The translations under genes and the position numbers were made by a program. Shown here piece after piece: positions 6,330-43,770 of a DNA stretch of 43,770 nt. Under the pieces are notes generated by a model, which was not told the origin of the DNA, did not search any database, and worked only from the letters and a program-made list of their open reading frames with translations. The stretch lies in the IMG/VR virus record IMGVR_UViG_3300045988_064273; one strand, 5' to 3'. This DNA is from a virus. How positions within the stretch are numbered: position 1 is the first letter of the stretch; every line of letters starts with the position of its first letter.

Positions 6330-8072
6330 TTAGCCGTACACCCAGCATATCTGCCCGTTTACAGTCGGCGTCGATTCCGCACTTGCAAAATACTGATTGC
6401 GCAGTGCAGGCGTTCCGACCGCTACACCGTCGGTCGCGTACTTCGCCTTGTTGACGGTTTGACTTGCTATGTTCGATGTGGTGATAGCCGTGGATTTGTC
6501 CTGCTTTGTGTCTTGCAGGTTTTTGTCGGCTGATATCCACGTATACCCCGTAGCCGCCGCCGCTGTGCAGTGATAAACAAGCTTTGCCGCCGTGTCGATG
6601 TAGGTTTGGCCGACTACACCGACGGTCGATGTCGTTGGCGGCGCGGTGCCGATGATGGGCTGAGGTAGATCGTCAAGCGCCGCCTTTACGCCTCCCGAAG
6701 TTATCGGGTTTGTGCTGCCTGCCGTGGGTGCTGTGTCGAATGTCAAAGCGTTCTGCTTTCCGTTCCACGCCGTCCTCTCCGCGGCGGTAATGTGCTTAGC
6801 TGTGTTTTGCGCGTGGGTATTCAGATTGTCCTGTACGGTCTCTGCCGCGCCCTGCGCGTCCGCTCCGACCATTGCGGCGGTGTAGTCGCCCGTCTGGGGC
6901 GCAACAGCTCCGGAGCGCCCGTTGAAGCTTGAAACACCGCCTCCGGCAACTCCCTGTGCGGCCATAGCCCAATACTTGGCGTTGTTCGTGTCCTCGCCGG
7001 TTCGCGTGCCTGTGCCGCCGACTGCCCAGCTCTCGGACAGCTTGCTGCTCGCCTGTGCGCTTTGTGCACTCGCTCCGGCGCTCTGTGCGCTCCCCGCCGC
7101 CGCGCTCTTGGCGCTCTCTGCGTCTGTCTTGGCGCTCTGTGCGGAAGTATTCGCGGCCTCGGCATCTGCTTTCGCGGTCTGCGCCGAGGTGTTTGCAGTC
7201 TCGGCCTTGCTCTGCGCCGTCTGTGCCGCTGCTTTTGCCGACTCTGCGGCGGATTTTGCCGACTGCGCGGAAGCATTCGCGCTCTCGGCGCTTGCCCCTG
7301 CCGTGACCGCCGCTGCTTTCGCGCTCTCTGCGGCTGCCTTTGCGCTCTGTGCCGCCTGAGCCGCGGTCTGAGCCGCCGTGGCCTTTTCTGTGGCCGTCTG
7401 AACGCTCTGTGCGCTTGCAGTCTCGCTGGCCGCTGCCGATGCAGCCGACTCTGCCGCCGCTGATGCCGAGCCGGAAGCCGATGCTGCCGCGCTTTCTGCT
7501 GCGGTCTGTGCGCTCTCCGCTTTGCCTTGGGCAGTCTCGGCCTTGCTCTGCGCGGTTTCCGCTTTGCCCTGTGCGGTCTCGGCTGCTGCCTGTGCCGTCT
7601 CCGCTGCTGCCTGCGCATCCTCGGCTTTGCCCTGTGCGGTTTCTGCCGCTGTCTGCGCGTCCTTTGCCGCCTGTGCCGACTGTGCCGCCGCCGACTGCAC
7701 CTGCGCCCAGATGGGCAGTGTGCCGGTCGATACGTCCTCATATCCCTCATAGCCCTTGCGTATCTTGCCGACCGTCGCCCACACCGTAGGTATCGCGACC
7801 GTGTTGGCGTTGTCTGCGCCGTACACGCCGACCATAAGTATCTCGTCGCTTTTCGCAAGACATTCCTGCGGAATGGAGCAGACGTTGTTTTCCCAATACG
7901 AATCGAGCACGACCTTTGTAACGTCGCCTGCCGTGAATATCGCGGTTCTGCTTATTCCCGAATGCCAATCGGCTGAAAACTCGAATTTTATCTTTGCATT
8001 TATCATGCCGCTGGTCAAGGTTTCGTTTTCCGTCACCGTCGCCAGCGCTTTGCCGATCATGATTGTTGTCAA
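6330..8072 (-). CDS. Tail fibre protein with a ~210-aa Ala-rich heptad (AETAQGK-type) shaft
   Basis: Long low-complexity helix plus SFNGRSGAV..GDYTA, a common fibre motif. Start is TTG 8072 (SD AGGAGG, 8-nt spacer) or ATG 8060; the ORF extends to 8150. Confidence 0.7.
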   Translation of the reverse strand: MTTIMIGKALATVTENETLTSGMINAKIKFEFSADWHSGISRTAIFTAGDVTKVVLDSYWENNVCSIPQECLAKSDEILMVGVYGADNANTVAIPTVWATVGKIRKGYEGYEDVSTGTLPIWAQVQSAAAQSAQAAKDAQTAAETAQGKAEDAQAAAETAQAAAETAQGKAETAQSKAETAQGKAESAQTAAESAAASASGSASAAAESAASAAASETASAQSVQTATEKATAAQTAAQAAQSAKAAAESAKAAAVTAGASAESANASAQSAKSAAESAKAAAQTAQSKAETANTSAQTAKADAEAANTSAQSAKTDAESAKSAAAGSAQSAGASAQSAQASSKLSESWAVGGTGTRTGEDTNNAKYWAMAAQGVAGGGVSSFNGRSGAVAPQTGDYTAAMVGADAQGAAETVQDNLNTHAQNTAKHITAAERTAWNGKQNALTFDTAPTAGSTNPITSGGVKAALDDLPQPIIGTAPPTTSTVGVVGQTYIDTAAKLVYHCTAAAATGYTWISADKNLQDTKQDKSTAITTSNIASQTVNKAKYATDGVAVGTPALRNQYFASAESTPTVNGQICWVYG

Positions 8073-8107
8073 AAGGCTTTTCCTCCTTTTTCGCTTCTTG
8101 ATTTCAG

Positions 8108-8145
8108 CATAACAAAAGAAGGCAGGGCTTATTAAGCCCCACCTT
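8108..8145 (-). terminator. Rho-independent terminator after the giant gene
   Basis: - strand AAGGTGGGGCTT-aat-AAGCCCTGCCTT (12 bp including 2 G-U pairs) followed by CTTTTGTTAT. Confidence 0.65.
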
Positions 8146-8163
8146 CGCATGTTTTTTAACTTT
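8133..8163 (-). repeat. Late-junction element, copy a (AAAGTTAAAAAA-CATGCG-AAGGTGGGGCTTA)
   Basis: Shares an A-tract, 6 nt and AAGGTGGGGCT(G/T)A with 23019-23050 and 27232-27262. Confidence 0.6.
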
Positions 8164-22803: not shown

Positions 22804-22870
22804 TACCGCCTGCAGGGCTCGAACCTGCATCTCTATCTCTCCGAGCGTTTTACCGTTAAACTAAGGCGAT
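22804..22870 (-). ncRNA. tRNA-like element (67 nt) with acceptor, D and T arms but no foldable anticodon arm
   Basis: ATCGCCT/AGGCGGT acceptor, GTTT-AACGGTA-AAAC D arm, and a perfect GCAGG-TTCGAGC-CCTGC T arm. The middle 17 nt (CTCGGAGAGATAGAGAT) give no 5-bp stem. Confidence 0.55.
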
Positions 22871-22904
22871 ATACAAAAGGGGCGGAGAAGGGGGGACTCC
22901 GCCC
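22871..22904 (-). terminator. Rho-independent terminator between the Prp gene and the tRNA-like element
   Basis: - strand GGGCGGAG-tcccccctt-CTCCGCCC followed by CTTTTGTATAT. Confidence 0.75.
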
Positions 22905-23014
22905 GTAAGAAAGGAGATGTAGCAGACTATTACAGCCGCCGCCTGCCAGGGCGACATCTTAAAGGAGGTGAACTTGCTGTCTCATGCAACCCACGTTTTC
23001 AGCATAGCATTTAC

Positions 23015-23359
23015 TTATGCTTTGCTTTCAGCCCCACCTTGCGCACTTTTTTTAGTTTCTGTGAAAATTTTTATGTATTCCGGGTATTCCTGCATCAGCA
23101 ACACAAAGCCCTTGACTATTACCGACATTTCAACGACCGCCACAGGGTCATATTCAGTCAGCTTTATTCGCGCTTTGCCGTCGGATATATCAATTTCCGT
23201 GATATCTTTGGAACTTTCCTGCAAAATAGCCGCTGCCGTGCGCACAAGGATTGTCGCAGCCGCGCATATCAAATCCTCGCCTTTGGGCGCAGACTGCGCA
23301 TGCCCTTCGATTTTTAATTCAAACGTGCTGCCGGTGCTGTTTACGCATACATTTATCAT
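23015..23359 (-). CDS. Prp-like (DUF464, ribosomal-processing cysteine protease family) protease
   Basis: ELKIEGHAQSAPKGEDLICAAATIL matches the GHA...G.D.(V/I)CA signature. 114 aa, between portal and scaffold. Confidence 0.8.
   Translation of the reverse strand: MINVCVNSTGSTFELKIEGHAQSAPKGEDLICAAATILVRTAAAILQESSKDITEIDISDGKARIKLTEYDPVAVVEMSVIVKGFVLLMQEYPEYIKIFTETKKSAQGGAESKA
23019..23050 (-). repeat. Late-junction element, copy b (GAAACTAAAAAAA-GTGCGC-AAGGTGGGGCTGA)
   Basis: Matches 27232-27262 with 1 mismatch and 1 indel over ~31 nt. Lies in the last codons of the Prp gene. Confidence 0.7.
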
Positions 23360-25287
23360 GTCGTTGCATGTCCTCCATCGGGCATTGCCGCCTCGCGCGT
23401 CTTTGCCCGGGCGTTAGACACCTGCGCATGTTCGCGCTTTGCCGGGTCTTCTGCAAGCTGTATATTCGCCTGCGGTGTGCTGATCTGCACGTTGGCCTGC
23501 TGTGCTATAGCCTGTATCTGCGCAAGCGACTGCGCATCACCGCATTTGGCCGCAAGCAGTGCCGCGACTTGCAGCACCGTGTTAAATCGGTCAAACAGGG
23601 TGCCGTTTTGCTTGATGGTTTTGCGGACATCGTCGATGCTGTCAAAATCCATCATCGTAAGGCATGCAAGCGCCTGGTCTGTCTGCTGCGGATTGAAAAA
23701 GCCAAGGTTATAAAACTGCAAAGCCAATTCATTATTTGACATCTTGGTGTATGCCGTGCGCTTCTGCGGAACGACATTGATATCAAACTCCGGCACACGC
23801 TGCCCGATATCGTATCCGGCAAACATCTGTGTCTGCGGCTTTATGTGCTCGTTGGAATAGCTTAAGAACAATTCCTCGCCGCCGTCGCCCAGAATGCGGA
23901 ACTGGCGCGGCGCATCGTAAAACTGCCTTATCAGCTCTATGACAAGATAGTTTAATTCGCTGTATGCCCTGTAGCTTGCCTTGGTGCTGTCTCTGCTGCC
24001 TTTGCCGCTGGCTTCCTGCAATGCTGCTATTGCGCTTGCAGCCGTTACTCCGCTGCTTGTCGTGCCTGTTGCGGTTTCTGTGTTGCCGCTGGTTTCGCGC
24101 AATTCGTTGATGCTAAGCTGCAGCATGCTGATATAGTTGCCGTCAAGGTTATCGTGCGTAACAGGCTTTAGGTTATCGTCGTTTAAGCTGCCTTCGACGT
24201 TTATGATGGTTTCATTCAGGTTCGTAAACTGTTCAACGTTAACGCCGCAGTTGGCTTTCTTAAAGTACCTGGGTTTTGCGCCGACCATTGCATTTTCCAC
24301 ATACGCCGTTTTCATCAGGTCAATTTCAGTCTGCGGCGCTTTGCACAGGTCTACATAGCCGTATCCGCACGGGCTGCCTTCAATGGGAAACAGCGTGTCA
24401 AACACATACGGGTATTTGCTGTGGTCATACCAGCCGGTCATTGCACGGTCAGGGTCATTTTCCGTCGCATAAAGCACCGTGCCCGGAACAAACAGTATGT
24501 AGTGCAGCACACCGTTTTTGTGATAGTACGCACTGATAACAGGCACTTTGTCCGTAGTGTCTACATGGTCATCGTATCTGTATTTGCTGGTTATAAAATC
24601 ATGCGGTATATTCTTGCCCTCCGGCAGCTCAGCCGGGAACATGGCTCGGACTTCGGTTTCGTCCTGAAAATCGACCTCAAAGAAATACTTTGACTGCTGT
24701 ATATCCTCGACTCCCGGCTCCCAGAATAGATTAAGGATGTTGCACTTGCGCACATCGATATCGCCCAAGCCGTTCATTTTGTTCTTATCCCATATGACCT
24801 TGTACACGCCTGTGCCGGTCTTTAGCTTTGACCACATGACTTTGCTATAGGTAGTCTCAAACTGGTTCTTTTCCAGCACAACAGGGATTATTTTAGACAG
24901 CATAGCCGCCTCCACCTTATCTCCCTGCTCCCTCGGCAGTATGTTAGGCTCAGGGTAGGCGTCCATTGCGTCGGCGTGTTTGTTGGTGATTACGTTATGC
25001 AGCCAGCCGCTTTTGCTACGAAAGCCCGGCTTTGCGTGGCCGTCCTTGTCTTCTTCAACATCGTTTCGCAGCTTCCACCAGTTTTCCGATGCGATGATAC
25101 GGCTATCGACCGACTTCTTCCCGGCGCGATATTTGTTTAGTATCTGCATCAAATCCTGTATCTGCTGTTCCCCAATGGGTTTTATGCCAAGCATCTGCGC
25201 CGCAGTTTCAACGCTGCCAAGCTCGGGCGCTTTGCTGCCGTCTGCGCGTATAGTGTCCTTAGTGATATCCATTTGCTTTGTATCCAT
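23356..25287 (-). CDS. Portal protein (643 aa)
   Basis: Immediately downstream of and overlapping TerL. Size and position are typical of portals. Confidence 0.75.
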   Translation of the reverse strand: MDTKQMDITKDTIRADGSKAPELGSVETAAQMLGIKPIGEQQIQDLMQILNKYRAGKKSVDSRIIASENWWKLRNDVEEDKDGHAKPGFRSKSGWLHNVITNKHADAMDAYPEPNILPREQGDKVEAAMLSKIIPVVLEKNQFETTYSKVMWSKLKTGTGVYKVIWDKNKMNGLGDIDVRKCNILNLFWEPGVEDIQQSKYFFEVDFQDETEVRAMFPAELPEGKNIPHDFITSKYRYDDHVDTTDKVPVISAYYHKNGVLHYILFVPGTVLYATENDPDRAMTGWYDHSKYPYVFDTLFPIEGSPCGYGYVDLCKAPQTEIDLMKTAYVENAMVGAKPRYFKKANCGVNVEQFTNLNETIINVEGSLNDDNLKPVTHDNLDGNYISMLQLSINELRETSGNTETATGTTSSGVTAASAIAALQEASGKGSRDSTKASYRAYSELNYLVIELIRQFYDAPRQFRILGDGGEELFLSYSNEHIKPQTQMFAGYDIGQRVPEFDINVVPQKRTAYTKMSNNELALQFYNLGFFNPQQTDQALACLTMMDFDSIDDVRKTIKQNGTLFDRFNTVLQVAALLAAKCGDAQSLAQIQAIAQQANVQISTPQANIQLAEDPAKREHAQVSNARAKTREAAMPDGGHATT

Positions 25288-26716
25288 CCTTTTTGTATTG
25301 GTTCAGTGGGTCTGACAATATAACTTTCGGTTTTTGAGGTATTATCGGGCTTATCGGTCTTGCCATACACATATAACGCCATTCATCGCCTACGTGGTCT
25401 TCCATCGACGTGTCCAAATCTTCGGGCTTGTGTTCATCGTACATCAGCAGCGGTATAGTACGGATAAACGCCTTGCAGTTGTCAAACACATACATGCGCG
25501 GATAACCGTTATCGTCAAATTGCAGTCGGTAATGGCATTGCATCCAGCCTGCAAGCCGCTTGTTGTCGCCGGGGTCGAAGTACACACCGTATTTCTCGGC
25601 GGTCTCCGCGACCGACACGCCGCGCGACACATCCCATATTGACGGGTCAGCAACACCAAGTATCTTGCGCCCTTTAAGCCATGGGTGCGTCTGCTCCGTC
25701 TCGCGGATGCGCTTAAACTGTTCGTCGGGTGTCCACTTGACACCTTCATTCGGCGTATCTGTGCAGCCGTACAGTTCCAAAACACGATACAGCACGCCGT
25801 CATAGTCGATAGCCCACCATGCGCAACTAAACGGCTTGTTATAGCCGAAGTCGTATGACCTGTATATCGTCCAGCCACGCGCCGCGCCTTCGTTCAGGTC
25901 AAACGCCGGTATAACATGCGTAAATCTGCGCTGTGCAATAGCTTCTTCCTGCGTTATCCCTGCCTTTGCGCACAGTTGCGCATCCGGGCGCGTTCTGAAA
26001 TCTTCAAAGAATGCGCCGTCGAATATATCCCATTCGCCCTCCAACCACGCCTTACGCAGCTTAGGCGGCAGGGCTTCAAGCTTTTTTATATAGTCGGGGT
26101 CTGCATCCATCAGCGGCTTGTTATCCGTGACCTTGCTTTGAATGAATGAATAGTCCTCCGGGTTCTCCCCATCGGTATAGGCGCGGTCTATCGCCAGCCG
26201 TTTCACCCAACTGTGACCCACACCGCCGGGGTTACATGTAACATATATCCGCCGTGGGAAATCATTCGCGCCACGCACGCAGGCCGAGAGCTTCCTAAAC
26301 CGTTCTTCGGTTTGGTGGGTACCTTCGTCCAAAAACAGAATATCCGTTTCTGTGCCCTGAAAGCGTTCTGCATCCTTGTCGGTATCGCAGTACCTAAACA
26401 ATATTCTACTGCCGTTCGGGAATGTAATGGCCTTCTTCTGATCGTTATAGCTTGCCATGCGCTGTGATTTATCAGCATCATAGCAATGCAGATCGCGTGT
26501 CAGAGGTACTATGTGGTTTTCCTGCAATTCCGGGTATGTTTTACGCACGATCATTGCTGTTATCCCCGGAAACTTGAAGCAGTACAGCACCGCCGAGACG
26601 CGCACGACGAAGCTTTTGCCGCCGCCGCGTGCGCCGCCGAAAAACACAACATGCGTCCTATCCTTTAAAAATTCCTGTTGTGTAGGGCTTAGGTAGTCGA
26701 TTTTGTATTCAGGCAT
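25259..26716 (-). CDS. terL: Terminase large subunit
   Basis: Walker A FFGGARGGGKS and Walker B-like ILFLDEGTH, with a C-terminal nuclease-type region. Confidence 0.92.
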   Translation of the reverse strand: MPEYKIDYLSPTQQEFLKDRTHVVFFGGARGGGKSFVVRVSAVLYCFKFPGITAMIVRKTYPELQENHIVPLTRDLHCYDADKSQRMASYNDQKKAITFPNGSRILFRYCDTDKDAERFQGTETDILFLDEGTHQTEERFRKLSACVRGANDFPRRIYVTCNPGGVGHSWVKRLAIDRAYTDGENPEDYSFIQSKVTDNKPLMDADPDYIKKLEALPPKLRKAWLEGEWDIFDGAFFEDFRTRPDAQLCAKAGITQEEAIAQRRFTHVIPAFDLNEGAARGWTIYRSYDFGYNKPFSCAWWAIDYDGVLYRVLELYGCTDTPNEGVKWTPDEQFKRIRETEQTHPWLKGRKILGVADPSIWDVSRGVSVAETAEKYGVYFDPGDNKRLAGWMQCHYRLQFDDNGYPRMYVFDNCKAFIRTIPLLMYDEHKPEDLDTSMEDHVGDEWRYMCMARPISPIIPQKPKVILSDPLNQYKKDGYKANGYH

Positions 26717-26718
26717 GG

Positions 26719-27228
26719 TTATTTACCGCAGAAATCATCGGCACCGGCAATGATAACGCGCACCGGCTCAGGCTGTGCTTCTCCTGCTGCCTGGCGTTCA
26801 AGGTTTTTGATACGCGCTTCCTGTTCGCGTTTATCAGCATCGGATTTAACACCCTGGATTTCCGCAAGGTCTTTCATTGCGCCTGTAAGGCTTTTCAGGC
26901 CGCGTTTATCCTTTATAATATCCGCATCCGTTAACTGTGCTACAGCGCTGCATAGCTTGCTTGACAGCAGCCCAGCAGCTTCTAACAGGCTTTTATATTC
27001 CTGATAGTCAATTTCCAGCTGTGCTTTGATACGGTCTGCGCCCTTGGCCGCGCTATACTGCGTCCGCTTCTGCGCCCATTTTTCTCTTTCTGCGCGTTTC
27101 CTCAAAGTGCTGTAAGAAACGTTGTGTTTCTCGGCAAGCGGCCTTGTGCCTATGTCGGTAGTAATATATTCAGTTTTGATATCATCCCATTTGCTCATGC
27201 CTTTATAATAATGTAGGTGGCGCTGCAT
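26719..27228 (-). CDS. terS: Terminase small subunit (HTH)
   Basis: GTRPLAEKHNVSYSTLRKRAEREKW HTH, directly upstream of terL. An alternative start is 27198 (MSKWDD). Confidence 0.6.
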   Translation of the reverse strand: MQRHLHYYKGMSKWDDIKTEYITTDIGTRPLAEKHNVSYSTLRKRAEREKWAQKRTQYSAAKGADRIKAQLEIDYQEYKSLLEAAGLLSSKLCSAVAQLTDADIIKDKRGLKSLTGAMKDLAEIQGVKSDADKREQEARIKNLERQAAGEAQPEPVRVIIAGADDFCGK

Positions 27229-27243
27229 TAATCAGCCCCACCT
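27215..27243 (-). promoter_or_regulatory. Hairpin enclosing the terS SD and first ATG
   Basis: - strand AGGTGGGGCTG-attaatg-CAGCGCCACCT (10 of 11 bp). ATG 27228 sits in the loop and the SD in the 5' arm. Confidence 0.5.
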
Positions 27244-27262
27244 TGCACACTTTTTTAGTTTT
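27232..27262 (-). repeat. Late-junction element, copy c (AAAACTAAAAAA-GTGTGC-AAGGTGGGGCTGA)
   Basis: See 23019-23050. Lies immediately upstream of terS. Confidence 0.7.
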
Positions 27263-27347: not shown

Positions 27348-27376
27348 TTGGCAAATTAGCCTAATAGGACTATAAT
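27348..27376 (+). promoter_or_regulatory. Near-consensus sigma-70-type promoter of the inverted cassette
   Basis: TTGGCA, 17-nt spacer, TATAAT. Confidence 0.6.
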
Positions 27377-27421
27377 AGAATCATCAAGAGGGAAATGACA
27401 AAAACAAAAGGAGAAATTAAA

Positions 27422-27649
27422 ATGAATATTCCGAACGAATTAGAGATCATAAACATTATGAAAACCGGCTGCAAGAAAGCTCACATAGCGCAGTGCCTGA
27501 GCGACGCGAGCATGCACGACGAGATTAAATATGATTATTTCGGCCAGCGTGTGCAACGCGGCGAGACGCTGCTCCACACCAAGAACGGAGATTTTACTCT
27601 GAAATTCCGAGCCGAAAACGGTTGGCTGACTTACGCCGAAGTCATTTAA
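27422..27649 (+). CDS. Hypothetical protein (75 aa), cassette gene 1
   Basis: SD AAAGGAG 8 nt before ATG 27422; the ORF track start is 27395. Confidence 0.6.
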   Translation: MNIPNELEIINIMKTGCKKAHIAQCLSDASMHDEIKYDYFGQRVQRGETLLHTKNGDFTLKFRAENGWLTYAEVI

Positions 27650-27662
27650 ACGGAGGAAGAAA

Positions 27663-27878
27663 ATGAATTACTATTCTTATCAGGAATTAAAGGCCGCTGT
27701 TATGGCCAACCCCACCGCCGAAAACGTCAACGCACTCGGCGAATGGTTTTCAAGCCACGGAAACGATTATTGGAATGGCGAATACTACGACGCAGACGAT
27801 TTTGCAGTATGGCCAATGTGCAAAGAAGTCGAAGAAGACGAATTTGAAATCACCGGATATGAAATCCGGTCGCTGTGA
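27663..27878 (+). CDS. Hypothetical strongly acidic protein (71 aa), cassette gene 2
   Basis: SD GGAGGAAG. Asp/Glu-rich (EEDEFE, YYDADD). Confidence 0.6.
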   Translation: MNYYSYQELKAAVMANPTAENVNALGEWFSSHGNDYWNGEYYDADDFAVWPMCKEVEEDEFEITGYEIRSL

Positions 27879-27941
27879 GTTGAGTTGATGATTGGCATTT
27901 CCCGACCGAGAAGTTTTGGATAAGCAAGGAGGAACGCTAAC

Positions 27942-28286
27942 ATGCGATTGACTGATAAACAGTTTGGGCAAATGTTTGCCGATGCTAATAGCATTAACGA
28001 CCGTGATGCTTTTATGTACGATTGGGCATTATCTGATATTTGGGGCGATGCCCCGGAAACCGATATTCCGGCCGACCGCATAGACGCTATCACCCACATA
28101 TGGGATTTGGCGCACACTTCAATTAATGACATCATTACCACGTCCGGCTTGTCTATCACGAATTTCGCTGCAACCTACGCGATACCATATAGCACAGTGC
28201 AACATTGGCGGTCAGGCGTTAATACTTGTCCGGTTTATCTTCGGCTGCTTTTAATCCGCTCGATCGGCTGCTACAAATTTAAATAA
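27942..28286 (+). CDS. Hypothetical protein (114 aa) with a C-terminal HTH-like segment, cassette gene 3
   Basis: SD AGGAGGAA. NFAATYAIPYSTVQHWRSGVNTCPVYLRLLL. Confidence 0.6.
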   Translation: MRLTDKQFGQMFADANSINDRDAFMYDWALSDIWGDAPETDIPADRIDAITHIWDLAHTSINDIITTSGLSITNFAATYAIPYSTVQHWRSGVNTCPVYLRLLLIRSIGCYKFK

Positions 28287-28290
28287 AAAC

Positions 28291-28318
28291 AAGGGTAACG
28301 CTTAATGCGCTACCCTTT
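28291..28318. terminator. Bidirectional terminator between convergent units
   Basis: AAGGGTAACGC-ttaat-GCGCTACCCTT (1 mismatch), with T-rich tracts on both strands. Confidence 0.7.
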
Positions 28319-28544
28319 AGTATTTTTCCGCTAATGTGATCTTGTAGACCGGGCATTGTGCGTACTGTGTGCAGCAGTATTTGGACACATACACCCGGCG
28401 TTTCTGCTCGTCGCCTTTAAACCACAGCTGCAATCTTGCGTCACCGCATGGGCCTTCACAAAATATCTTGTTCTCACGCGCCGAGCCTTTTGACCAAAAC
28501 GGGCATTTTGCCCGACTGTCATAATATCCGTCAGCGCCCCTCAT
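28317..28544 (-). CDS. Small Cys-rich protein (75 aa), last early gene
   Basis: Start moved to MRGADGYY. Contains CPFW..CEGPCGD..CC..C. Confidence 0.5.
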   Translation of the reverse strand: MRGADGYYDSRAKCPFWSKGSARENKIFCEGPCGDARLQLWFKGDEQKRRVYVSKYCCTQYAQCPVYKITLAEKY

Positions 28545-33781: not shown

Positions 33782-34490
33782 CGGCTACCTCGACAAATTC
33801 GCCGTCCGCAAGCTTATACCATGTATCAGCCTTTATTATTTCGCCGTCGATCTGTGCTGATTTAACGCAAACAGGGGCACAGCGCTGTTTATCGCTGTCA
33901 TATGCCCACTCCGCAAGTGTTATCCAGTTGCCGACTGCTCCTTTTATAATGCTGTTGAGGCCTATAGCAGCGCCTACGCTGGTGTTGCCCGAAATATCGA
34001 TCTTCGCGAAGTTGCCTGAGCTGCCTATCTGCGCGGAGTCGCCTGAGCTGCCTATCTGCGCGAAGCCGCCTGAGCTGCCTATCTGCGCGAAGCCGCCTGA
34101 GCTGCCTATCTGCGCGGAGCCGCCTGTTTCGACCTTATCACTCGGCATATTTTTTATCGTTTTCTCGTATACGAAATCTATACAGGCTTTGACGAAACCG
34201 GCAAAACCAAGCTTTACGCCGATTTTGATAGTGCTTGTGGCGAATTTTCGCCCATCATCGGTAACAGGCTCGTCGATAGCTTCGACAGTCGTAAATTCGC
34301 TGAACTTACCGTCGTTACGCACAAGCGGGTAATGATTCAACACATCAAACGGATTAACGCAGTAGTGCGTAACCCCGCCGACGCATACGCCGTGCCCGTT
34401 TTTCTTGTAGGTTTTGCCTTCTTCGTACTGATAACCCCTGCATACGAGTCCGGGGTCATAGGCTTTGTAGCCGTGTTTGTTGTCTGTCAT
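33774..34490 (-). CDS. Hypothetical protein (238 aa) with a conserved phage N-domain and a 9-aa tandem repeat (AQIGSSGxF)
   Basis: GYKAYDPGLVCRGYQYEEGKTY..HYCVNPFDVLNHYP, followed by the repeat array. Confidence 0.6.
   Translation of the reverse strand: MTDNKHGYKAYDPGLVCRGYQYEEGKTYKKNGHGVCVGGVTHYCVNPFDVLNHYPLVRNDGKFSEFTTVEAIDEPVTDDGRKFATSTIKIGVKLGFAGFVKACIDFVYEKTIKNMPSDKVETGGSAQIGSSGGFAQIGSSGGFAQIGSSGDSAQIGSSGNFAKIDISGNTSVGAAIGLNSIIKGAVGNWITLAEWAYDSDKQRCAPVCVKSAQIDGEIIKADTWYKLADGEFVEVADE
34024..34131. repeat. Four 27-bp tandem repeats inside 33774-34490
   Basis: GCCTGAGCTGCCTATCTGCGCG(G/A)AG(T/C)C x4, with units 2 and 3 identical. Confidence 0.9.
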
Positions 34491-35200
34491 GGTTGTTCCC
34501 CTTTCACTTTTGCGTAGATCGCTTTTAAGTTTTCAAGCTCGTCGCTGCTGACATTCTCCCTGTGCTGCTCAACGCCTAGTCGCTGCTGTTCGCGTTCTTT
34601 CAGCGGATAGACATCCTGCCAGCATTTAACGATGCTTTGTTCAAGCACCGATTTCCACTGCTCCGGCGGAAATTCGTTTTTAAGCTTTGTCACTAAAAGC
34701 TGCTTTGCCCTGTCAGTCATGGGCTTTCTGATGCTCCGGCGCATTTTCTCGAAGTCTTTCAAAACGGCCAGTAAATCACCATCACCGGCCGCGAAAGCGG
34801 CGAATGCGTCAGCATCGCGCGTGCGCGCGCTTTTGTCTTTGTCTTTGTCGATTGTCTTATTGTCTTTGTCGATTGTCTTATTGTCTTTGTCTTGTGGGCT
34901 TTTGCTTGCACTTGCTGCATTTGCTTGCAAATGCTCTTTTTGCTCGCAAGTGCTCCTTTTGCTTGCACTTGCTGCGTCACGCCGCTTTTGAGACAACTCA
35001 TCCTTTGATAAAACATCTCTATCAATCTGCGCCCTCATCATGGGGAATAAGAATCGTTCGTTCCCGTTGAGCTGCGGAACTTCGCCCGACCTTGCATAGG
35101 TTAACAAGGAAGTGAAAAGTCTCCCCCTCTCAGCGTCACCGAGCGGCTCTATCGCATCGAGATAATCAACAAAGACCTTGATATAAGTTATCTCGGCCAT
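34487..35200 (-). CDS. Putative replication initiator / replisome-organiser-like protein (237 aa)
   Basis: Lies next to ssb. C-terminal ...SIVKCWQDVYP resembles phage replication-protein C-domains. Carries internal iterons. Confidence 0.45.
   Translation of the reverse strand: MAEITYIKVFVDYLDAIEPLGDAERGRLFTSLLTYARSGEVPQLNGNERFLFPMMRAQIDRDVLSKDELSQKRRDAASASKRSTCEQKEHLQANAASASKSPQDKDNKTIDKDNKTIDKDKDKSARTRDADAFAAFAAGDGDLLAVLKDFEKMRRSIRKPMTDRAKQLLVTKLKNEFPPEQWKSVLEQSIVKCWQDVYPLKEREQQRLGVEQHRENVSSDELENLKAIYAKVKGEQP
34840..34894. repeat. 21-bp tandem repeat (2.6 copies), TGTCTTTGTCGATTGTCTTAT
   Basis: 34840-34860 and 34861-34881 are identical, and a partial third copy follows. Confidence 0.85.
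34901..34976. repeat. Four tandem 19-bp iterons, TTTGCT(T/C)GCA(C/A)nTGCT
   Basis: Units start at 34901, 34920, 34939 and 34958. A 19-bp period is not a multiple of 3. Confidence 0.8.
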
Positions 35201-41911: not shown

Positions 41912-42490
41912 ATGCTTAATGTGTCAAAAATGGAGGACATGCAATCTTACTTTGACGAGTACCCTGAGGCACTGCGAAAAGCGAGAGCTTCAAGCAGTCT
42001 TACGCTGGCAGAGCTGGCAAGGATAAGCGGCGTTCCTTATAACAGCATTTGCTCCGTCAACTCCGGCGCTACGAAGCAGCCGCTGCTTTATTACTCTGCG
42101 GCAACCTGTAAAGCACTCGGCTTATCCTTGGACGAGCTGTTCGGTATAACAAACACAGAGGGCAGCGTTACCCAGCTAAAGCGAATAAACGCATTGGAGG
42201 TGAAAGCGGCGTGCTTGGAAAAGGACGTTGAACACCACAAGCGCATGAACGCCGTTTACAGGCCGCTGATCTTCTGCCTTGTCGGTGTATGCGCAATTCT
42301 GCTGTGCGCAATCATCGGATACGTAATGTTTGATATACAGCTTAAAAACATCGGTCTGTTCAAATCCGGCGGCTTAACGGTGCTGGCCGTGTTCCTGGCT
42401 ATCGTGGTGCTTGCTGCAATCGCCCTGATCGTCTTTGCGGTGAAAACCGTAATCCACGATGCCAAAACAGCAAAAAGCCCACAGGACTGA
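41912..42490 (+). CDS. Membrane-anchored XRE-family HTH regulator (about 190 aa, 2 TM)
   Basis: LTLAELARISGVPYNSICSVNSG HTH plus two C-terminal TM helices. Start is uncertain (ATG 41912, GTG 41921 or ATG 41930). Confidence 0.7.
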   Translation: MLNVSKMEDMQSYFDEYPEALRKARASSSLTLAELARISGVPYNSICSVNSGATKQPLLYYSAATCKALGLSLDELFGITNTEGSVTQLKRINALEVKAACLEKDVEHHKRMNAVYRPLIFCLVGVCAILLCAIIGYVMFDIQLKNIGLFKSGGLTVLAVFLAIVVLAAIALIVFAVKTVIHDAKTAKSPQD

Positions 42491-42554
42491 TTCTGTGGGC
42501 ATTATTCGCTATAAAATTATTTTCGGCGAATATCTAAGGGGGTTAAAGCGAATA

Positions 42555-43670
42555 ATGAAATGCAAAAAATGCAAAGCCGAATTGCCCGATGAGCTGCATT
42601 TTACGTTCTGCGGCTATTGCGGTGAGCGCCTTGTCCGCGAGCGCAAGAAGAAAGACGAGATAAAAATACCCACGCCGCGTAAGCGTGGGCAGAGATGGTA
42701 TGTTGACCTACGCCGCGAGGGCGTGACCGTCATTGAGGACACCGAAGCCGAAGCCAAGGCCAAGGCGATTGCTATAAGAGCCGGGTTTGTTAAGACTCAA
42801 AAGAAAACGGACTTGACACTTGCCGAAGCGATAGATAATTATATTGAAAATCGCCGGAACGTTCTGTCACCGTCAACCCTTGCCGGTTACGGCTCCGTGA
42901 AAAAGAACCGCTTTAAGGCCGTAATGGCAAAACCGCTTTCTGATATAAAGGACTGGCAAGCAGTAATTAACGCAGAAGCGCTTGTGTGCGCTCCTAAGAC
43001 GCTTAAAAATGCATGGGGGCTTGTGTCACCGGCCATAAAATCCGCCGGTGTGGAGCTGCCCAGGCTCACCCTACCGCAAATCGTGCCTAAAGACCCAGTT
43101 TTTCTTACGCCGGAGCAGATACATGTCTTTATCGCAGCTGTCAAGGGAACGCCTGTTGAGATAGCTGCACTACTCGGCTTGCATTCGCTCAGGCGCTCCG
43201 AGATCGCCGCGCTTGATTGGTCAAATGTCGATTTGGAAAAGCGCACTATAAAAGTATCCGGCGCAGTAGTCCCGGGAGAAAATTGGACACTTGTTGAAAA
43301 GCCGTCAAACAAAAACGCCACATCGACCCGAACAATACCTATTATGATACCAGAGCTTTATGAGGCTTTGACGGCTGTTAAAAGTAAGCACGGTAAGGTC
43401 GTAACATGCTACATTTCCACAGTGTATGATTGGGTCAATGATATTTGTGCTGCTAACGGTTTGCCGAAGCTTGGAGTTCACGGCTTGCGTCATTCTTTCG
43501 CTTCATTAGCCTACCATGTTCGTATGAGCGAACAGGCTGCGATGCAAATAGGCGGTTGGTCAGACTATGCGACGATGCGCAAAATTTACACGCATTTGTC
43601 TGCGCAGGATATAGGCCACGCAGAGAATGCAATGCGCGATTTTTACGACAATTTACCCAAGCAAGATTGA
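42555..43670 (+). CDS. int: Tyrosine integrase with an N-terminal zinc ribbon
   Basis: HGLRHSFASLAY and GGWSDYATMRKIYTHL catalytic motifs. N-terminal CKKC...CGYCG. SD AAGGGGG. The ORF track start is 42459. Confidence 0.93.
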   Translation: MKCKKCKAELPDELHFTFCGYCGERLVRERKKKDEIKIPTPRKRGQRWYVDLRREGVTVIEDTEAEAKAKAIAIRAGFVKTQKKTDLTLAEAIDNYIENRRNVLSPSTLAGYGSVKKNRFKAVMAKPLSDIKDWQAVINAEALVCAPKTLKNAWGLVSPAIKSAGVELPRLTLPQIVPKDPVFLTPEQIHVFIAAVKGTPVEIAALLGLHSLRRSEIAALDWSNVDLEKRTIKVSGAVVPGENWTLVEKPSNKNATSTRTIPIMIPELYEALTAVKSKHGKVVTCYISTVYDWVNDICAANGLPKLGVHGLRHSFASLAYHVRMSEQAAMQIGGWSDYATMRKIYTHLSAQDIGHAENAMRDFYDNLPKQD

Positions 43671-43715: not shown

Positions 43716-43770
43716 ATCAACGCCTTTTTGTTCTGCCGCAAAGGTTCGAATCCCTTACGGCGTGCCAAAA
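43716..43770. repeat. attR core: right copy of the 55-bp direct repeat (displaced tRNA 3' fragment)
   Basis: Identical to nt 1-55. The upstream sequence is phage DNA and does not complete a tRNA. Confidence 0.9.

Follow-up and report, generated by a model that had tools for sequence, protein, structure and literature searches.

Three copies of a lineage-specific repeat as putative upstream halves of late promoters in a gut Oscillospiraceae prophage

Which function explains a short element that recurs three times on the late strand of a viral genome? The question arises from a DNA stretch of 43,770 nucleotides (IMG/VR record IMGVR_UViG_3300045988_064273), which is referred to here as the window. 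The G-rich core of the element, AAGGTGGGGCT, has exactly three matches in the window, at 27244-27234 (copy c), 23040-23030 (copy b) and 8145-8135 (copy a), all on the late (minus) strand. Allowing one mismatch adds no site (0.48 expected), and with up to three mismatches 68 matches are observed against 86 expected, which indicates the absence of hidden degenerate copies. The three minus-strand copies described in the first-pass annotation are thus found at their places and nowhere else. Copies b and c have a 25-nt stretch in common, AAAAAAGTG(T/C)GCAAGGTGGGGCTGA, with one mismatch, and their similarity extends over 41 nt (83%). In 60 composition-preserving shuffles of the window, direct repeats with no more than one mismatch reached maximum lengths of 16-20 nt, in agreement with the earlier claim that this likeness exceeds chance. 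Copy a shares the exact 11-mer and the A tract with b and c.

The reading frames at the copies differ, as had been noted. Copy b takes in the final Prp codons (stop at 23017-23015 in the window), copy a lies across the stop of the giant gene, and copy c precedes the ORF-derived ATG of terS. The Prp stop of lineage B sits in the A tract of copy b, and lineage A, to which the window belongs, is one base shorter and gains 13 extra codons. Since Prp of lineage A crosses copy b only through this 1-nt deletion relative to lineage B, the element is conserved as nucleic acid and not as protein, which bears out the earlier proposal.

All three copies are followed, at equal distance, by a -10-like hexamer (TATGCT or TATTAT), while the 23 nt between core and hexamer are unrelated between copies. 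When the copies within each genome are aligned on their shared core, the hexamer takes the identical position in 11 of 14 copy pairs and other offsets are seen in 0-4 pairs; many of the lineages are related, so the pairs are not fully independent. The -35-like hexamers of the window are weak (2-4 of 6 positions, spacer of 19 nt), and a simple sigma-70 scan of the window listed none of the three sites. From this arrangement we infer that the three copies are probably the upstream halves of activator-dependent late promoters. Along the late strand, such a promoter would consist of an A tract, GTGC-like bases, the 11-nt lineage-specific G-rich core and a weak -35-like hexamer, then a spacer of about 19 nt, a -10-like TATGCT or TATTAT and a start point roughly 7 nt later. 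The promoter at c would serve terS and the packaging genes, that at b the head genes and a leader RNA, and that at a the genes after the giant gene. Because the -35 hexamers are poor and the core is lineage-specific, all three would probably require a phage-encoded factor that recognises the core.

Comparison with relatives is informative for the core. The element is retained in all close relatives of the window phage. In lineage A the core reads (A/G)AGGTGGGGCT, whereas lineage B has AAGGGTGGAGT(G/T)ACAT and lineage C has GGGGGGTGGAGTGAC, in each case at c, b and a, so that all three sites change together in diverged lineages. For lineage C, a third copy was predicted and then found after the giant gene by an exact 15-mer scan of IMG/VR, in which the 15-mer had three matches only, all in that lineage C contig. 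More broadly, 33 of 77 non-redundant loci have a common substring of 12 nt or more between the region upstream of terS and the region after Prp, compared with 3/77 and 0/77 for two coding controls. About ten independent lineages contribute to this sharing (L046, L068, L069, L106, L109, L144 and L184 among them). In the lineage D DNA examined, one copy only is found. The motif is therefore present at the equivalent junctions of relatives, covarying within each lineage, which was the check proposed in the first-pass annotation.

This co-variation also bears on the idea that the copies are linkers for DNA recombination at module boundaries or a binding site (pac) for TerS. The homology between the window and L002-type relatives starts exactly at the upstream part of copy c (27245-27262), so a mosaic breakpoint does exist at the 5' edge of c, and copy c adjoins terS. 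The same three opposite-strand ORFs lie just upstream of the element in the window, in L011 (lineage A) and in L018 (lineage B). Prp is about 52% identical between lineages A and B compared with 86% for the portal, and this far greater divergence marks the b junction as a mosaic boundary as well. However, linkers must be common to the lineages that exchange modules, and the core differs between them. The distance from b to c is constant at 4204 nt except for an intein-type insertion in TerL in some relatives, and no deletion or swap of this 4.2-kb block was found among the relatives compared. A pac site, in turn, needs no copies 4 and 19 kb away. A linker or pac function is very unlikely on these grounds, and the module-exchange role suggested earlier is not retained.

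Copy c, at the head of the late operon, comprises the following features.

27245-27262, minus strand: upstream part of copy c, A tract and GTGTGC (AAAACTAAAAAAGTGTGC), about -64 to -47 from the predicted start point
27234-27244, minus strand: G-rich core AAGGTGGGGCT, then a weak -35-like CTGATT (27235-27230)
27215-27243, minus strand: hairpin AGGTGGGGCTG / ATTAATG / CAGCGCCACCT, with the ORF-derived ATG 27228 in the loop and without a T run
27205-27210, minus strand: -10-like hexamer TATTAT, positions 35-40 from A1 of the core
27196-27198, minus strand: conserved TerS start codon, M11 of the listed ORF, 6 nt past the -10-like hexamer

The part AAAAAAGTGC(G/C)(C/G) of copy c recurs at b, in L109 and in the terS promoters of lineage D. 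Folding of the hairpin region gives -25 kcal/mol over an 86-nt stretch (z = -2.95); selection on the hairpin looks weak, as its 3' arm has one wobble variant and one disruptive variant in relatives. Hexamers equivalent to that of copy c occur at the same spacing as CATAAT (lineage B, L106), TACAAT (lineage C) and TATTAT (L109).

According to the first-pass annotation, copy c supplies the Shine-Dalgarno (SD) sequence of terS. This is doubtful, as conservation of the TerS N-terminus begins only with the second ATG. The motif M-x-x-W-D-x-I-K-T-E-Y begins at the Met equivalent to 27198 in lineages A, B and C, L106 and L109, and in all of these the TerS start lies exactly 6 nt 3' of the -10-like hexamer, without an SD. 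The ten codons between ATG 27228 and 27198 are not conserved among relatives; the equivalent of the upstream ATG is followed directly by a stop (ATG TAG) in L022 and L023 and is out of frame in L106 and L109. By this comparison, the conserved TerS start is 27198 and not the ORF-derived ATG 27228. Because the start codon follows the -10-like hexamer by only 6 nt, the terS mRNA is predicted to be leaderless or near-leaderless. To our knowledge, no leaderless terS translation has been described in these hosts, which counts against the promoter reading.

The lack of conservation of ATG 27228 speaks against a translational role, in which an SD-like box and an A-rich enhancer would recruit ribosomes at c, while a and b would function as stand-by or pause sites. 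AAGGTGGGG does agree with the ideal SD AAGGAGGTG at 7 of 9 positions, and an ATG lies 7 nt past copy c. Yet this ATG is the one that runs into a stop or out of frame in relatives and adds ten unconserved codons, and no start codon lies downstream of a and b. Distant lineages have a separate canonical terS SD about 50 nt downstream of their element, and ribosome binding would not yield lineage-specific sequences. The SD-like translational or RNA-processing signal considered earlier is thus highly improbable.

A promoter at c is in line with the surroundings of terS in relatives. A strong terminator lies 10-20 nt upstream of c in L002/L015-type relatives and in lineage B, and terS needs its own promoter there for this reason. 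Lineage D has, at the c position, AAAAAGTGCCG-TAGAGAAAT-N15-TATACT/TACAAT/TATAAT, followed by an SD and ATG, which is a textbook promoter; its AAAAAGTGCC part is common to window copies b and c.

At copy a, the core coincides with a terminator.

8146-8163, minus strand: upstream part of copy a, AAAGTTAAAAAACATGCG, containing the giant-gene stop TAA (8158-8156)
8135-8145, minus strand: G-rich core AAGGTGGGGCT, which doubles as the 5' arm of the terminator
8111-8146, minus strand: intrinsic terminator after the giant gene, 13-bp stem (8146-8118) and TTTTGTT, z = -3.6
8106-8111, minus strand: -10-like hexamer TATGCT, positions 35-40, predicted start near 8099

The earlier description of copy a as the 5' arm of this terminator holds, given the 13-bp hairpin and the T run. 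Its stem carries a compensatory change, with A-U in the window, G-C in most relatives and G.U in two. The equivalent hexamer is TATGCT in lineage B and TACGCT in lineage C. Downstream of the hexamer follow an SD, AAGGAGG (about 8088-8082), and the start codon TTG 8072 of a 606-aa gene.

Copy b is located at the end of Prp and precedes a conserved non-coding sequence.

23041-23058, minus strand: upstream part of copy b, CAGAAACTAAAAAAAGTGCGC region, within the last Prp codons
23030-23040, minus strand: G-rich core AAGGTGGGGCT, then CTGAAA, weakly -35-like
23001-23006, minus strand: -10-like hexamer TATGCT, positions 35-40, predicted start near 22994
22866-22994, minus strand: predicted RNA of about 125 nt with an anti-SD-like GTTCACCTCCTTTAAGA, a pseudoknot candidate and a GC hairpin with T run
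22804-22870, minus strand: tRNA-like element with abnormal anticodon arm, directly 3' of the hairpin (Rfam tRNA, 45.9 bits)

Folding found no local hairpin partner for the core of window copy b (z = -0.6), whereas the same site in lineage B is a perfect terminator. Window copy b thus reads as a decayed form of a terminator that is intact in sister lineages, with the promoter parts kept. The -10-like hexamer, the shared spacing and this decayed terminator are absent from the first-pass annotation. The core doubles as the 5' arm of the intrinsic terminator that closes the preceding unit, at copy a in the window and at copy b in sister lineages, and such junctions would both stop upstream transcription and restart it.

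The hairpins can also be read as the whole function: a cassette of paralogous intrinsic terminators that spread to three junctions and stays uniform through gene conversion, with c and window b as decaying remnants. Copy a makes a good terminator whose stem shows a compensatory change, copies a and b of lineage B have the whole hairpin, the T run and ATTATGCTT in common, a complete 33-nt hairpin is duplicated in L046, and a 50-nt palindromic element occurs three times in L044. Decay, however, should hit 5' and 3' arms equally, but the 25 nt common to b and c survive with one mismatch next to downstream parts that are unrelated. Nor would spacers of unrelated sequence stay equal in length through gene conversion over 11-25 nt, and to replace the core in parallel at all three sites of three lineages would take selection or very active conversion. 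Terminators alone are therefore an unlikely explanation.

An RNA signal would use the same hairpins differently. Here, the A tract and the hairpin 5' arm would be bound on the nascent late transcript by a phage RNA-binding protein in the manner of RAT or nut; binding would disable the terminator hairpins of a and b and open up that of c. The core is indeed a hairpin 5' arm at a and c and, in lineage B, also at b, and every copy is on the transcribed strand. Within lineage A, the copies have identical 5' arms but different loops and 3' arms, as expected for an arm read by a factor. Lineage-specific co-variation is also seen in the nut sites of lambda, P22 and phi21. Such a signal would leave unexplained both the -10-like hexamer at identical spacing and the TerS start 6 nt after it; moreover, the core is kept at window b despite the lost hairpin, and it lies downstream of a complete terminator in L144 and L015-type relatives. 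N, Q, ANTAR, CAT/PRD or similar domains were found in none of the ORFs scanned, which also counts against this explanation. Antitermination or attenuation at the RNA level is thus unlikely as the main function. Of the late activator or antiterminator site proposed earlier, the activator half is supported by the co-variation and the fixed -10-like spacing, and the antiterminator half is not favoured. An RNA-level role may nevertheless coexist with the promoter role, because the core contributes an arm to RNA hairpins at a, c and lineage B b as well.

The promoter reading gains from copy b, which retains the core, the spacing and the -10-like hexamer though it has no hairpin partner. TATGCT occupies the identical position in lineages A, B and C despite unrelated 23-nt spacers, and the conserved non-coding RNA sequence starts right after it. 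This RNA, found in lineages A, B and C, L106, L107 and L109 only, contains an H-type pseudoknot candidate (GTCGCC..GGCAGGC..GGCGGC..GTCTGC), in whose GGCAGRC/GUCUGCY stem an A-U pair changes to G.U. It also contains a terminator, a GC hairpin with T run at 22904-22871, whose stem has two compensatory pairs; the reported distance of about 115 nt between copy b and this hairpin is confirmed when measured from the 3' end of b. The RNA has no match in Rfam, and ARAGORN called no tRNA in the adjoining tRNA-like element (22804-22870). A promoter at b would run into a terminator only about 125 nt downstream, which counts against the promoter reading.

A candidate for the trans-acting factor is encoded close to terS.

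28317-28544, minus strand: 75-aa basic Cys4 protein, last gene of the early operon

Of the 79 loci encoding the Cys4 protein, most have its gene immediately upstream of terS. Identity is 95% within lineage A and 54-66% to lineages B and C, L106 and L109, and the cysteines are spaced C-X14-C-X27-C-X6-C. Comparison with Pfam, NCBIfam, PHROG and known folds gave no match and no recognisable DNA-binding domain, and in the lineage comparison co-variation between protein and core was not demonstrated. Its gene position makes the Cys4 protein a candidate late activator.

Several known systems combine short repeats with the control of gene clusters. The sites nutL and nutR are near-identical within a genome, differ between related phages, and lie on the transcribed strand ahead of terminators, and the window copies share these properties. 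The function of nut rests on a conserved boxB hairpin, whereas loops and 3' arms differ in the window and a hairpin is missing from one copy; proteins like N or Q were not found, and the -10-like spacing has no counterpart in nut. Promoters of the T7 group recur at the junctions of gene clusters as highly conserved stretches of about 20 nt and need a phage single-subunit RNA polymerase. The element resembles them in being lineage-specific, purine-rich near the start and repeated at junctions. No such polymerase is encoded in the window phage, and the -10-like hexamer points to use of the host polymerase. The protein of 2612 aa is of MuF type, carries a PBECR5 nuclease domain and is no polymerase. 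The SAS of Cluster K mycobacteriophages is a short, asymmetric, SD-containing motif at gene junctions, immediately upstream of many starts. The element is likewise short, asymmetric, SD-containing and repeated within one phage genome, but only copy c has a nearby ATG, which is unconserved.

The P2 late promoters PP, PO, PV and PF have a shared upstream consensus at a fixed distance and are activated by Ogr (PMC3931495). Common to both systems, if the promoter reading holds, are several late promoters with one upstream consensus at fixed distance at the heads of successive morphogenetic units, and a small phage-encoded Cys4 protein, Ogr in P2 and the candidate here. The P2 element is a dyad, TGT-N12-ACA, in contrast to the asymmetric, G-rich element of the window. 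The cysteines of Ogr (CX2CX22CX4C) are spaced differently from those of the candidate, and no member of the Cys4 family matches the Ogr/Delta Pfam model. The host here is a member of the Clostridia, the portal is of P22 type, and the putative promoters are nested in terminators. Proteins of the Ltr superfamily (RinA, ArpU, LtrC) are small and basic, are encoded by the last early gene upstream of terS, bind repeated DNA upstream of terS and turn on the late operon (PMC3753634, PMC3152322). In its gene order and in where copy c lies, the window phage follows the layout in PMC3753634. One promoter region upstream of terS is described in the Ltr papers, whereas the window has three copies over 19 kb, and the candidate is Cys-rich with about 75 aa, compared with about 130 aa for Ltr proteins. 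The system thus resembles P2 Ogr and Ltr/RinA in its logic, with a candidate protein that belongs to neither family. Terminator-nested promoters of this kind would represent a familiar type of phage control signal in an unstudied phage group.

The stretch is a complete prophage whose ends are marked by exact 55-nt direct repeats, which resemble the 3' end of a tRNA gene (GGTTCGAATCCC...GCCA). Its relatives, both prophages and viral contigs, come from Oscillospiraceae of gut and rumen. Gut Oscillospiraceae are abundant and mostly uncultured, and to our knowledge the control of late genes in their phages is almost unstudied. The end sites, the late genes and the three copies of the ~31-nt element are placed as follows.

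1-55 and 43716-43770: attL and attR sites, the 55-nt direct repeats
42459-43670, + strand: integrase-sized ORF adjoining the right repeat
27262-27232, - strand: copy c, before terS
from 27228 as listed, - strand: terS
26716-25259, - strand: terL
25287-23356, - strand: P22-type portal
23359-23015, - strand: Prp protease, followed by a non-coding stretch and then the head genes
23050-23019, - strand: copy b, at the end of Prp
15994-8156, - strand: MuF/PBECR5 protein of 2612 aa (the giant gene), with further late genes after it
8163-8133, - strand: copy a, after the giant gene

The 2612-aa protein carries a MuF C-terminal domain and then a PBECR5 (Barnase/EndoU/ColicinE5-D/RelE-like) nuclease domain, and is of the MuF polymorphic-toxin type that has been described in temperate phages (PMC5576092). 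Many diverged 21-nt (7-codon) tandem repeats occur at 7055-7690 in the 606-aa gene that follows copy a (6330-8150, - strand). Four 27-nt tandem repeats are present in the DUF7666 gene (33987-34126), and four 19-nt repeats resembling TTTTGCTTGCACTTGCTGC in the DUF6291 gene beside SSB (34900-34992); these 19-nt repeats might serve as iterons of a replication origin. TerL of some close relatives is split after residue 441 by an intein-like insertion of ~860 nt (CLTGDT ... HNC) with a separate HNH endonuclease ORF inside (7150-8150 in relative locus L020; also L021, L024 and L025).

The element had been reported by the first-pass annotation at three late-operon junctions, and a check on the sequence confirmed both the coordinates of all three copies and the difference in their reading frames. 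The 11-mer AAGGTGGGGCT occurs at exactly three sites in the window, all on the late strand, and a search of the window yielded no further copies beyond chance, even at 3 mismatches. Copies b and c have 25 nt in common with one mismatch, as against a maximum of 20 in 60 shuffles of the window. The comparison drew on loci surrounding TerL relatives, 80 of them viral and 80 genomic, and on 24 that surround the end of the giant gene. Copies b and c are kept by all close relatives, which form lineage A together with the window, and the same is true of copy a. In diverged lineages the exact motif is absent and the sites vary in concert. In lineage B (TerL ~87%), all three sites read AAGGGTGGAGT(G/T)ACAT, and in lineage C (TerL ~83%) the sites before terS and after Prp read GGGGGGTGGAGTGAC. 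The third lineage C copy, after the giant gene, was predicted first and then located by an exact 15-mer scan of IMG/VR, in which a lineage C contig was matched three times by its 15-mer. This site lies ~19.9 kb downstream of c and directly after a stop codon, and the sequence following it is homologous to the window region downstream of a.

The regions upstream of terS and after Prp were also compared without a preselected motif in 77 non-redundant loci. At least 12 nt were common to both regions in 33 of the 77 loci, compared with 3 and 0 of 77 in the coding controls; the 33 come from about ten independent lineages that each have a sequence of their own. Lineages A, B and C have three copies per genome, and ~7 other lineages have two or more. 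Annotated phage records gave only weak, unannotated gut-virome matches. Other lineages of the phage group have multi-copy junction elements of their own: a 50-nt palindromic element occurs three times in L044 (~1509, 4003 and 5629), and a complete 33-nt terminator hairpin precedes terS and follows Prp in L046 (2847 and 7005).

When the copies are numbered from the first A of the core, the 11-nt G-rich part of each copy, a -10-like hexamer is found at positions 35-40 in all three window copies, and the 23-nt spacers are unrelated.

Table. The -10-like hexamers following copies c, b and a in the window and in other lineages and loci
Window: c TATTAT, b TATGCT, a TATGCT
Lineage B: c CATAAT, b TATGCT, a TATGCT
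Lineage C: c TACAAT, b TATGCT, a TACGCT
L109: c TATTAT, b TACACT
L068: c TAAAAT, b TAAAGT
L069: c TACAAT, b TATGCT
L046: c CATGAT, b TACCAT
L144: c CAAAAT, b AAAAAT

The hexamer position is identical (offset 0) in 11 of 14 copy pairs from ten lineages, and all other offsets from -10 to +10 account for 0-4 copy pairs each. A family-wide histogram of the distance between G run and -10-like hexamer is swamped by the near-identical members of lineage A and is unusable as statistics. The window hexamers have the form of a sigma-70/sigma-A -10 element (TATAAT-like, position 2 being A and position 6 T). At its 3' end, the conserved block is -35-like and reads GT(G/T)ACA in lineages B and C, with 4-5 of 6 positions agreeing with TTGACA; the window hexamers CTGATT, CTGAAA and CTTAAT agree at 3, 4 and 2 of 6. 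The spacer between the -35-like and -10-like hexamers is 19 nt in the window, B and C, as against the 16-18 nt of sigma-70 promoters. A consensus promoter scan of the window listed none of the three copies, because the -35 hexamers are poor and the spacers long. Sigma-54 spacing (GG-N10-GC) was rejected, as it fits no copy when the sequences are read by eye. In activator-dependent late transcription of phages (P2 Ogr, Mu C or Ltr type), several late promoters have a common upstream element whose distance to the -10 hexamer is constant, and the copies and hexamers here are arranged likewise. Judged from the sequence, the three copies are rather probably activator-dependent late promoters, with the 31-nt element as the upstream recognition part.

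Recombination linkers or a pac site would each explain some of the observations, and a breakpoint adjoining c exists, but neither gives a reason for the shared spacing, and both are very improbable. Linkers for module exchange, as suggested in the first-pass annotation, are in addition contradicted by the core, which differs among lineages A, B and C and the loci L106 and L109.

Copy a is an intrinsic terminator, with a stem of 13 bp followed by TTTTGTT (z = -3.6). Its stem shows compensatory variation, with A-U in the window, G-C in most relatives and G.U in two. It is the only window copy with the features of an intrinsic terminator, which are also present in copy b of lineage B and copy a of lineage C; the former is a perfect terminator immediately after the Prp stop. 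In the window lineage, b has lost its 3' arm, leaving the core without a hairpin partner. There, a 1-nt deletion in the A tract removed the ancestral Prp stop, and Prp has 13 more codons than in lineage B (23015-23058, - strand). Copy b appears coding because this deletion lets Prp read through the element. The hairpin at copy c holds the ATG of the listed terS ORF in its loop and has no T run, and its 3' arm carries a disruptive change in relatives. Since the hairpins are real at some sites only, the common feature of the three copies is a different one. Simple terminator paralogs, kept similar through gene conversion, would account for part of the data but leave the shared spacing unexplained, and are quite unlikely. 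An RNA antitermination site of the nut, put or RAT type, which also fits some of the observations, is unlikely: a common RNA structure is absent, as a and c have different loops and 3' arms and b lacks both, no N/Q-type or other antiterminator protein domain was found among the ORFs scanned, and here too the constant distance to the hexamer has no explanation. If the copies are activator-dependent promoters, copy a, and in sister lineages copy b, would have its promoter nested inside the terminator that closes the unit before it.

The core of copy c had also been proposed to provide the Shine-Dalgarno (SD) sequence of terS. The position of the start speaks against this. Conservation of the TerS N-terminus (M-x-x-W-D-x-I-K-T-E-Y) sets in at the second ATG, 27198, and does not extend to the ten codons upstream. 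In L022 and L023, a TAG comes right after the ATG of the listed ORF (27228), and L106 and L109 have their upstream ATG in another frame; the listed terS start at 27228 is probably wrong (27196-27228, - strand). An SD box would explain some of the observations, but a start codon is missing at copies a and b, the ATG following c is not conserved, and the common spacing is again unaccounted for, so that this explanation is hardly probable at all. In lineages A, B and C and in L106 and L109, the ATG at 27198 lies 6 nt past the -10-like hexamer and lacks an SD. This position, together with the conservation of the N-terminus from 27198, fits a transcript start at the terS AUG; the transcript probably begins at or adjoining the AUG, as a leaderless mRNA. 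In many relatives, a strong terminator closes the early operon 10-20 nt upstream of c, and between it and terS there is no space for another promoter.

In the diverged lineage D, the slot of copy c reads AAAAAGTGCCG-TAGAGAAAT-N15-TATACT/TACAAT/TATAAT, followed by an SD and ATG, which by its sequence is an ordinary promoter layout. The AAAAAGTGCC part of it is identical to the upstream part of b and c in the window. From GTGC to the -10 hexamer, lineage D has 31 nt and A, B and L109 have 41 nt; by this difference the G-rich core looks like 10 bp, or one helical turn, that was added to an older promoter.

Downstream of b, two further elements lie on the late strand.

~22994-22866, - strand: conserved non-coding RNA candidate (leader RNA) between Prp and the head genes
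22804-22870, - strand: tRNA-like element, 45.9 bits with the Rfam tRNA model

The leader RNA candidate contains an anti-SD-like GTTCACCTCCTTTAAGA, a C/U-rich tract and a GC hairpin with a T run. Its interlocking stems, GTCGCC/GGCGGC and GGCAGGC/GTCTGC, would form an H-type pseudoknot. It was found only in lineages A, B and C and in L106, L107 and L109, and a covariance model had matches in the closest lineages only. With Rfam, at gathering and E-value thresholds, only the tRNA-like element was obtained near b, and nothing for the repeat or the leader RNA. ARAGORN called no tRNA at 22804-22870. The anticodon arm of this element is shortened, defective and different between lineages, and the element might be a processing signal and not a decoding tRNA. 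The leader RNA may gate the expression of the head genes. Two candidates in this region were rejected. An opposite-strand ORF behind the perfect SD-like AAAGGAGGTGAAC (22960-22975) is long in A and has only 4-30 codons in B and C; what is conserved at these positions is the sequence of the late strand. In C the core could pair with the anti-SD-like sequence, but such pairing shows no co-variation between A and B, because these share the anti-SD-like sequence and differ in the core.

Activator-dependent promoters account for the repeat, its co-variation and spacing, the terS start and the terminator just upstream of c. They also account for the retention of b without a hairpin and for the conserved RNA that starts right after the b hexamer. 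A weak point of this reading is that transcription from b would run into the hairpin at 22904-22871 after ~125 nt.

A candidate for the activator is encoded by the last gene of the early operon.

28544-28317, - strand: gene of a 75-aa basic protein with four cysteines (Cys4 protein)

The invariant cysteines of the family are C14, C29, C57 and C64. The gene is located directly upstream of terS in most of the 79 loci encoding it; in the window, L011 and L018, three opposite-strand ORFs separate it from the element. These ORFs, at 27348-28286 on the + strand between the early operon and terS, are small (84, 71 and 114 aa), have no known function and are accompanied by a near-consensus sigma-70 promoter (TTGGCA-17-TATAAT, 27348-27376). 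As the same insert is shared by L011 of lineage A and L018 of lineage B, it resembles a mobile moron, which may be expressed from the prophage. Identity of the Cys4 protein is 95% among lineage A members and 54-66% between these and B, C, L106 and L109, and the family comprises 570 clusters at 50% identity. The protein has no match in Pfam, NCBIfam or PHROG, and Ogr_Delta and other relevant Pfam families were matched by 0 of 80 members. A first structure model was poor (pLDDT 51); for a second, AlphaFold model (pLDDT 81), PDB matches did not go below E = 1.6, and similarity was confined to uncharacterised viral proteins. Sigma factor, antiterminator, ANTAR, Ogr and Ltr domains were found in none of the 50 window ORFs. 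Promoters for a T7- or N4-type phage RNA polymerase were rejected, the giant protein being a MuF protein with a nuclease domain instead. The Cys4 protein as activator of the three late promoters is a guess from gene position.

The repeat is real and functional-looking, and of a familiar kind, namely repeated late promoter elements, in an unstudied phage group. Its distinctive details are the nesting of promoter and terminator, a probably leaderless terS and a new candidate regulator family. A more far-reaching proposal is tentative: the Cys4 proteins could be a new, widespread class of late-gene activators whose target, a G-rich box that varies by lineage, precedes an otherwise ordinary promoter by one helical turn. 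Each of the three junctions would then act as a terminator-promoter cassette, and together they would cut the 27-kb late region into units with their own starts, one beginning with leaderless terS mRNA and another with a structured leader RNA (pseudoknot, 16S 3'-end mimic, terminator and tRNA-like element) gating the head genes. If the copies are indeed activator-dependent late promoters, late transcription units in this phage group could be located by a simple sequence rule, namely a TATGCT-type hexamer with a lineage-specific G-rich box at constant distance; the terS start would be corrected, and a large uncharacterised protein family would be nominated as the switch for packaging and lysis. 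In staphylococcal phages, the late switch step also controls transduction and satellite mobilisation. The nested promoter and terminator form a compact design that could be reused in synthetic constructs.

The Cys4 protein differs in sequence from the Ogr and Ltr activators. The CX2CX22CX4C motif and the Ogr_Delta match of the Ogr/Delta family are absent from it, and members of the Ltr superfamily (RinA, ArpU, LtrC) have ~130 aa, whereas the 75-aa Cys4 protein shares neither sequence nor fold similarity with them. As it belongs to neither family, its resemblance to such systems, still unproven, would be one of function only. A parallel in arrangement is Ogr of phage P2, a Cys4 activator serving several late promoters with a shared consensus (PMC3931495), just as a Cys4 candidate is found here together with several putative late promoters that have an element in common.
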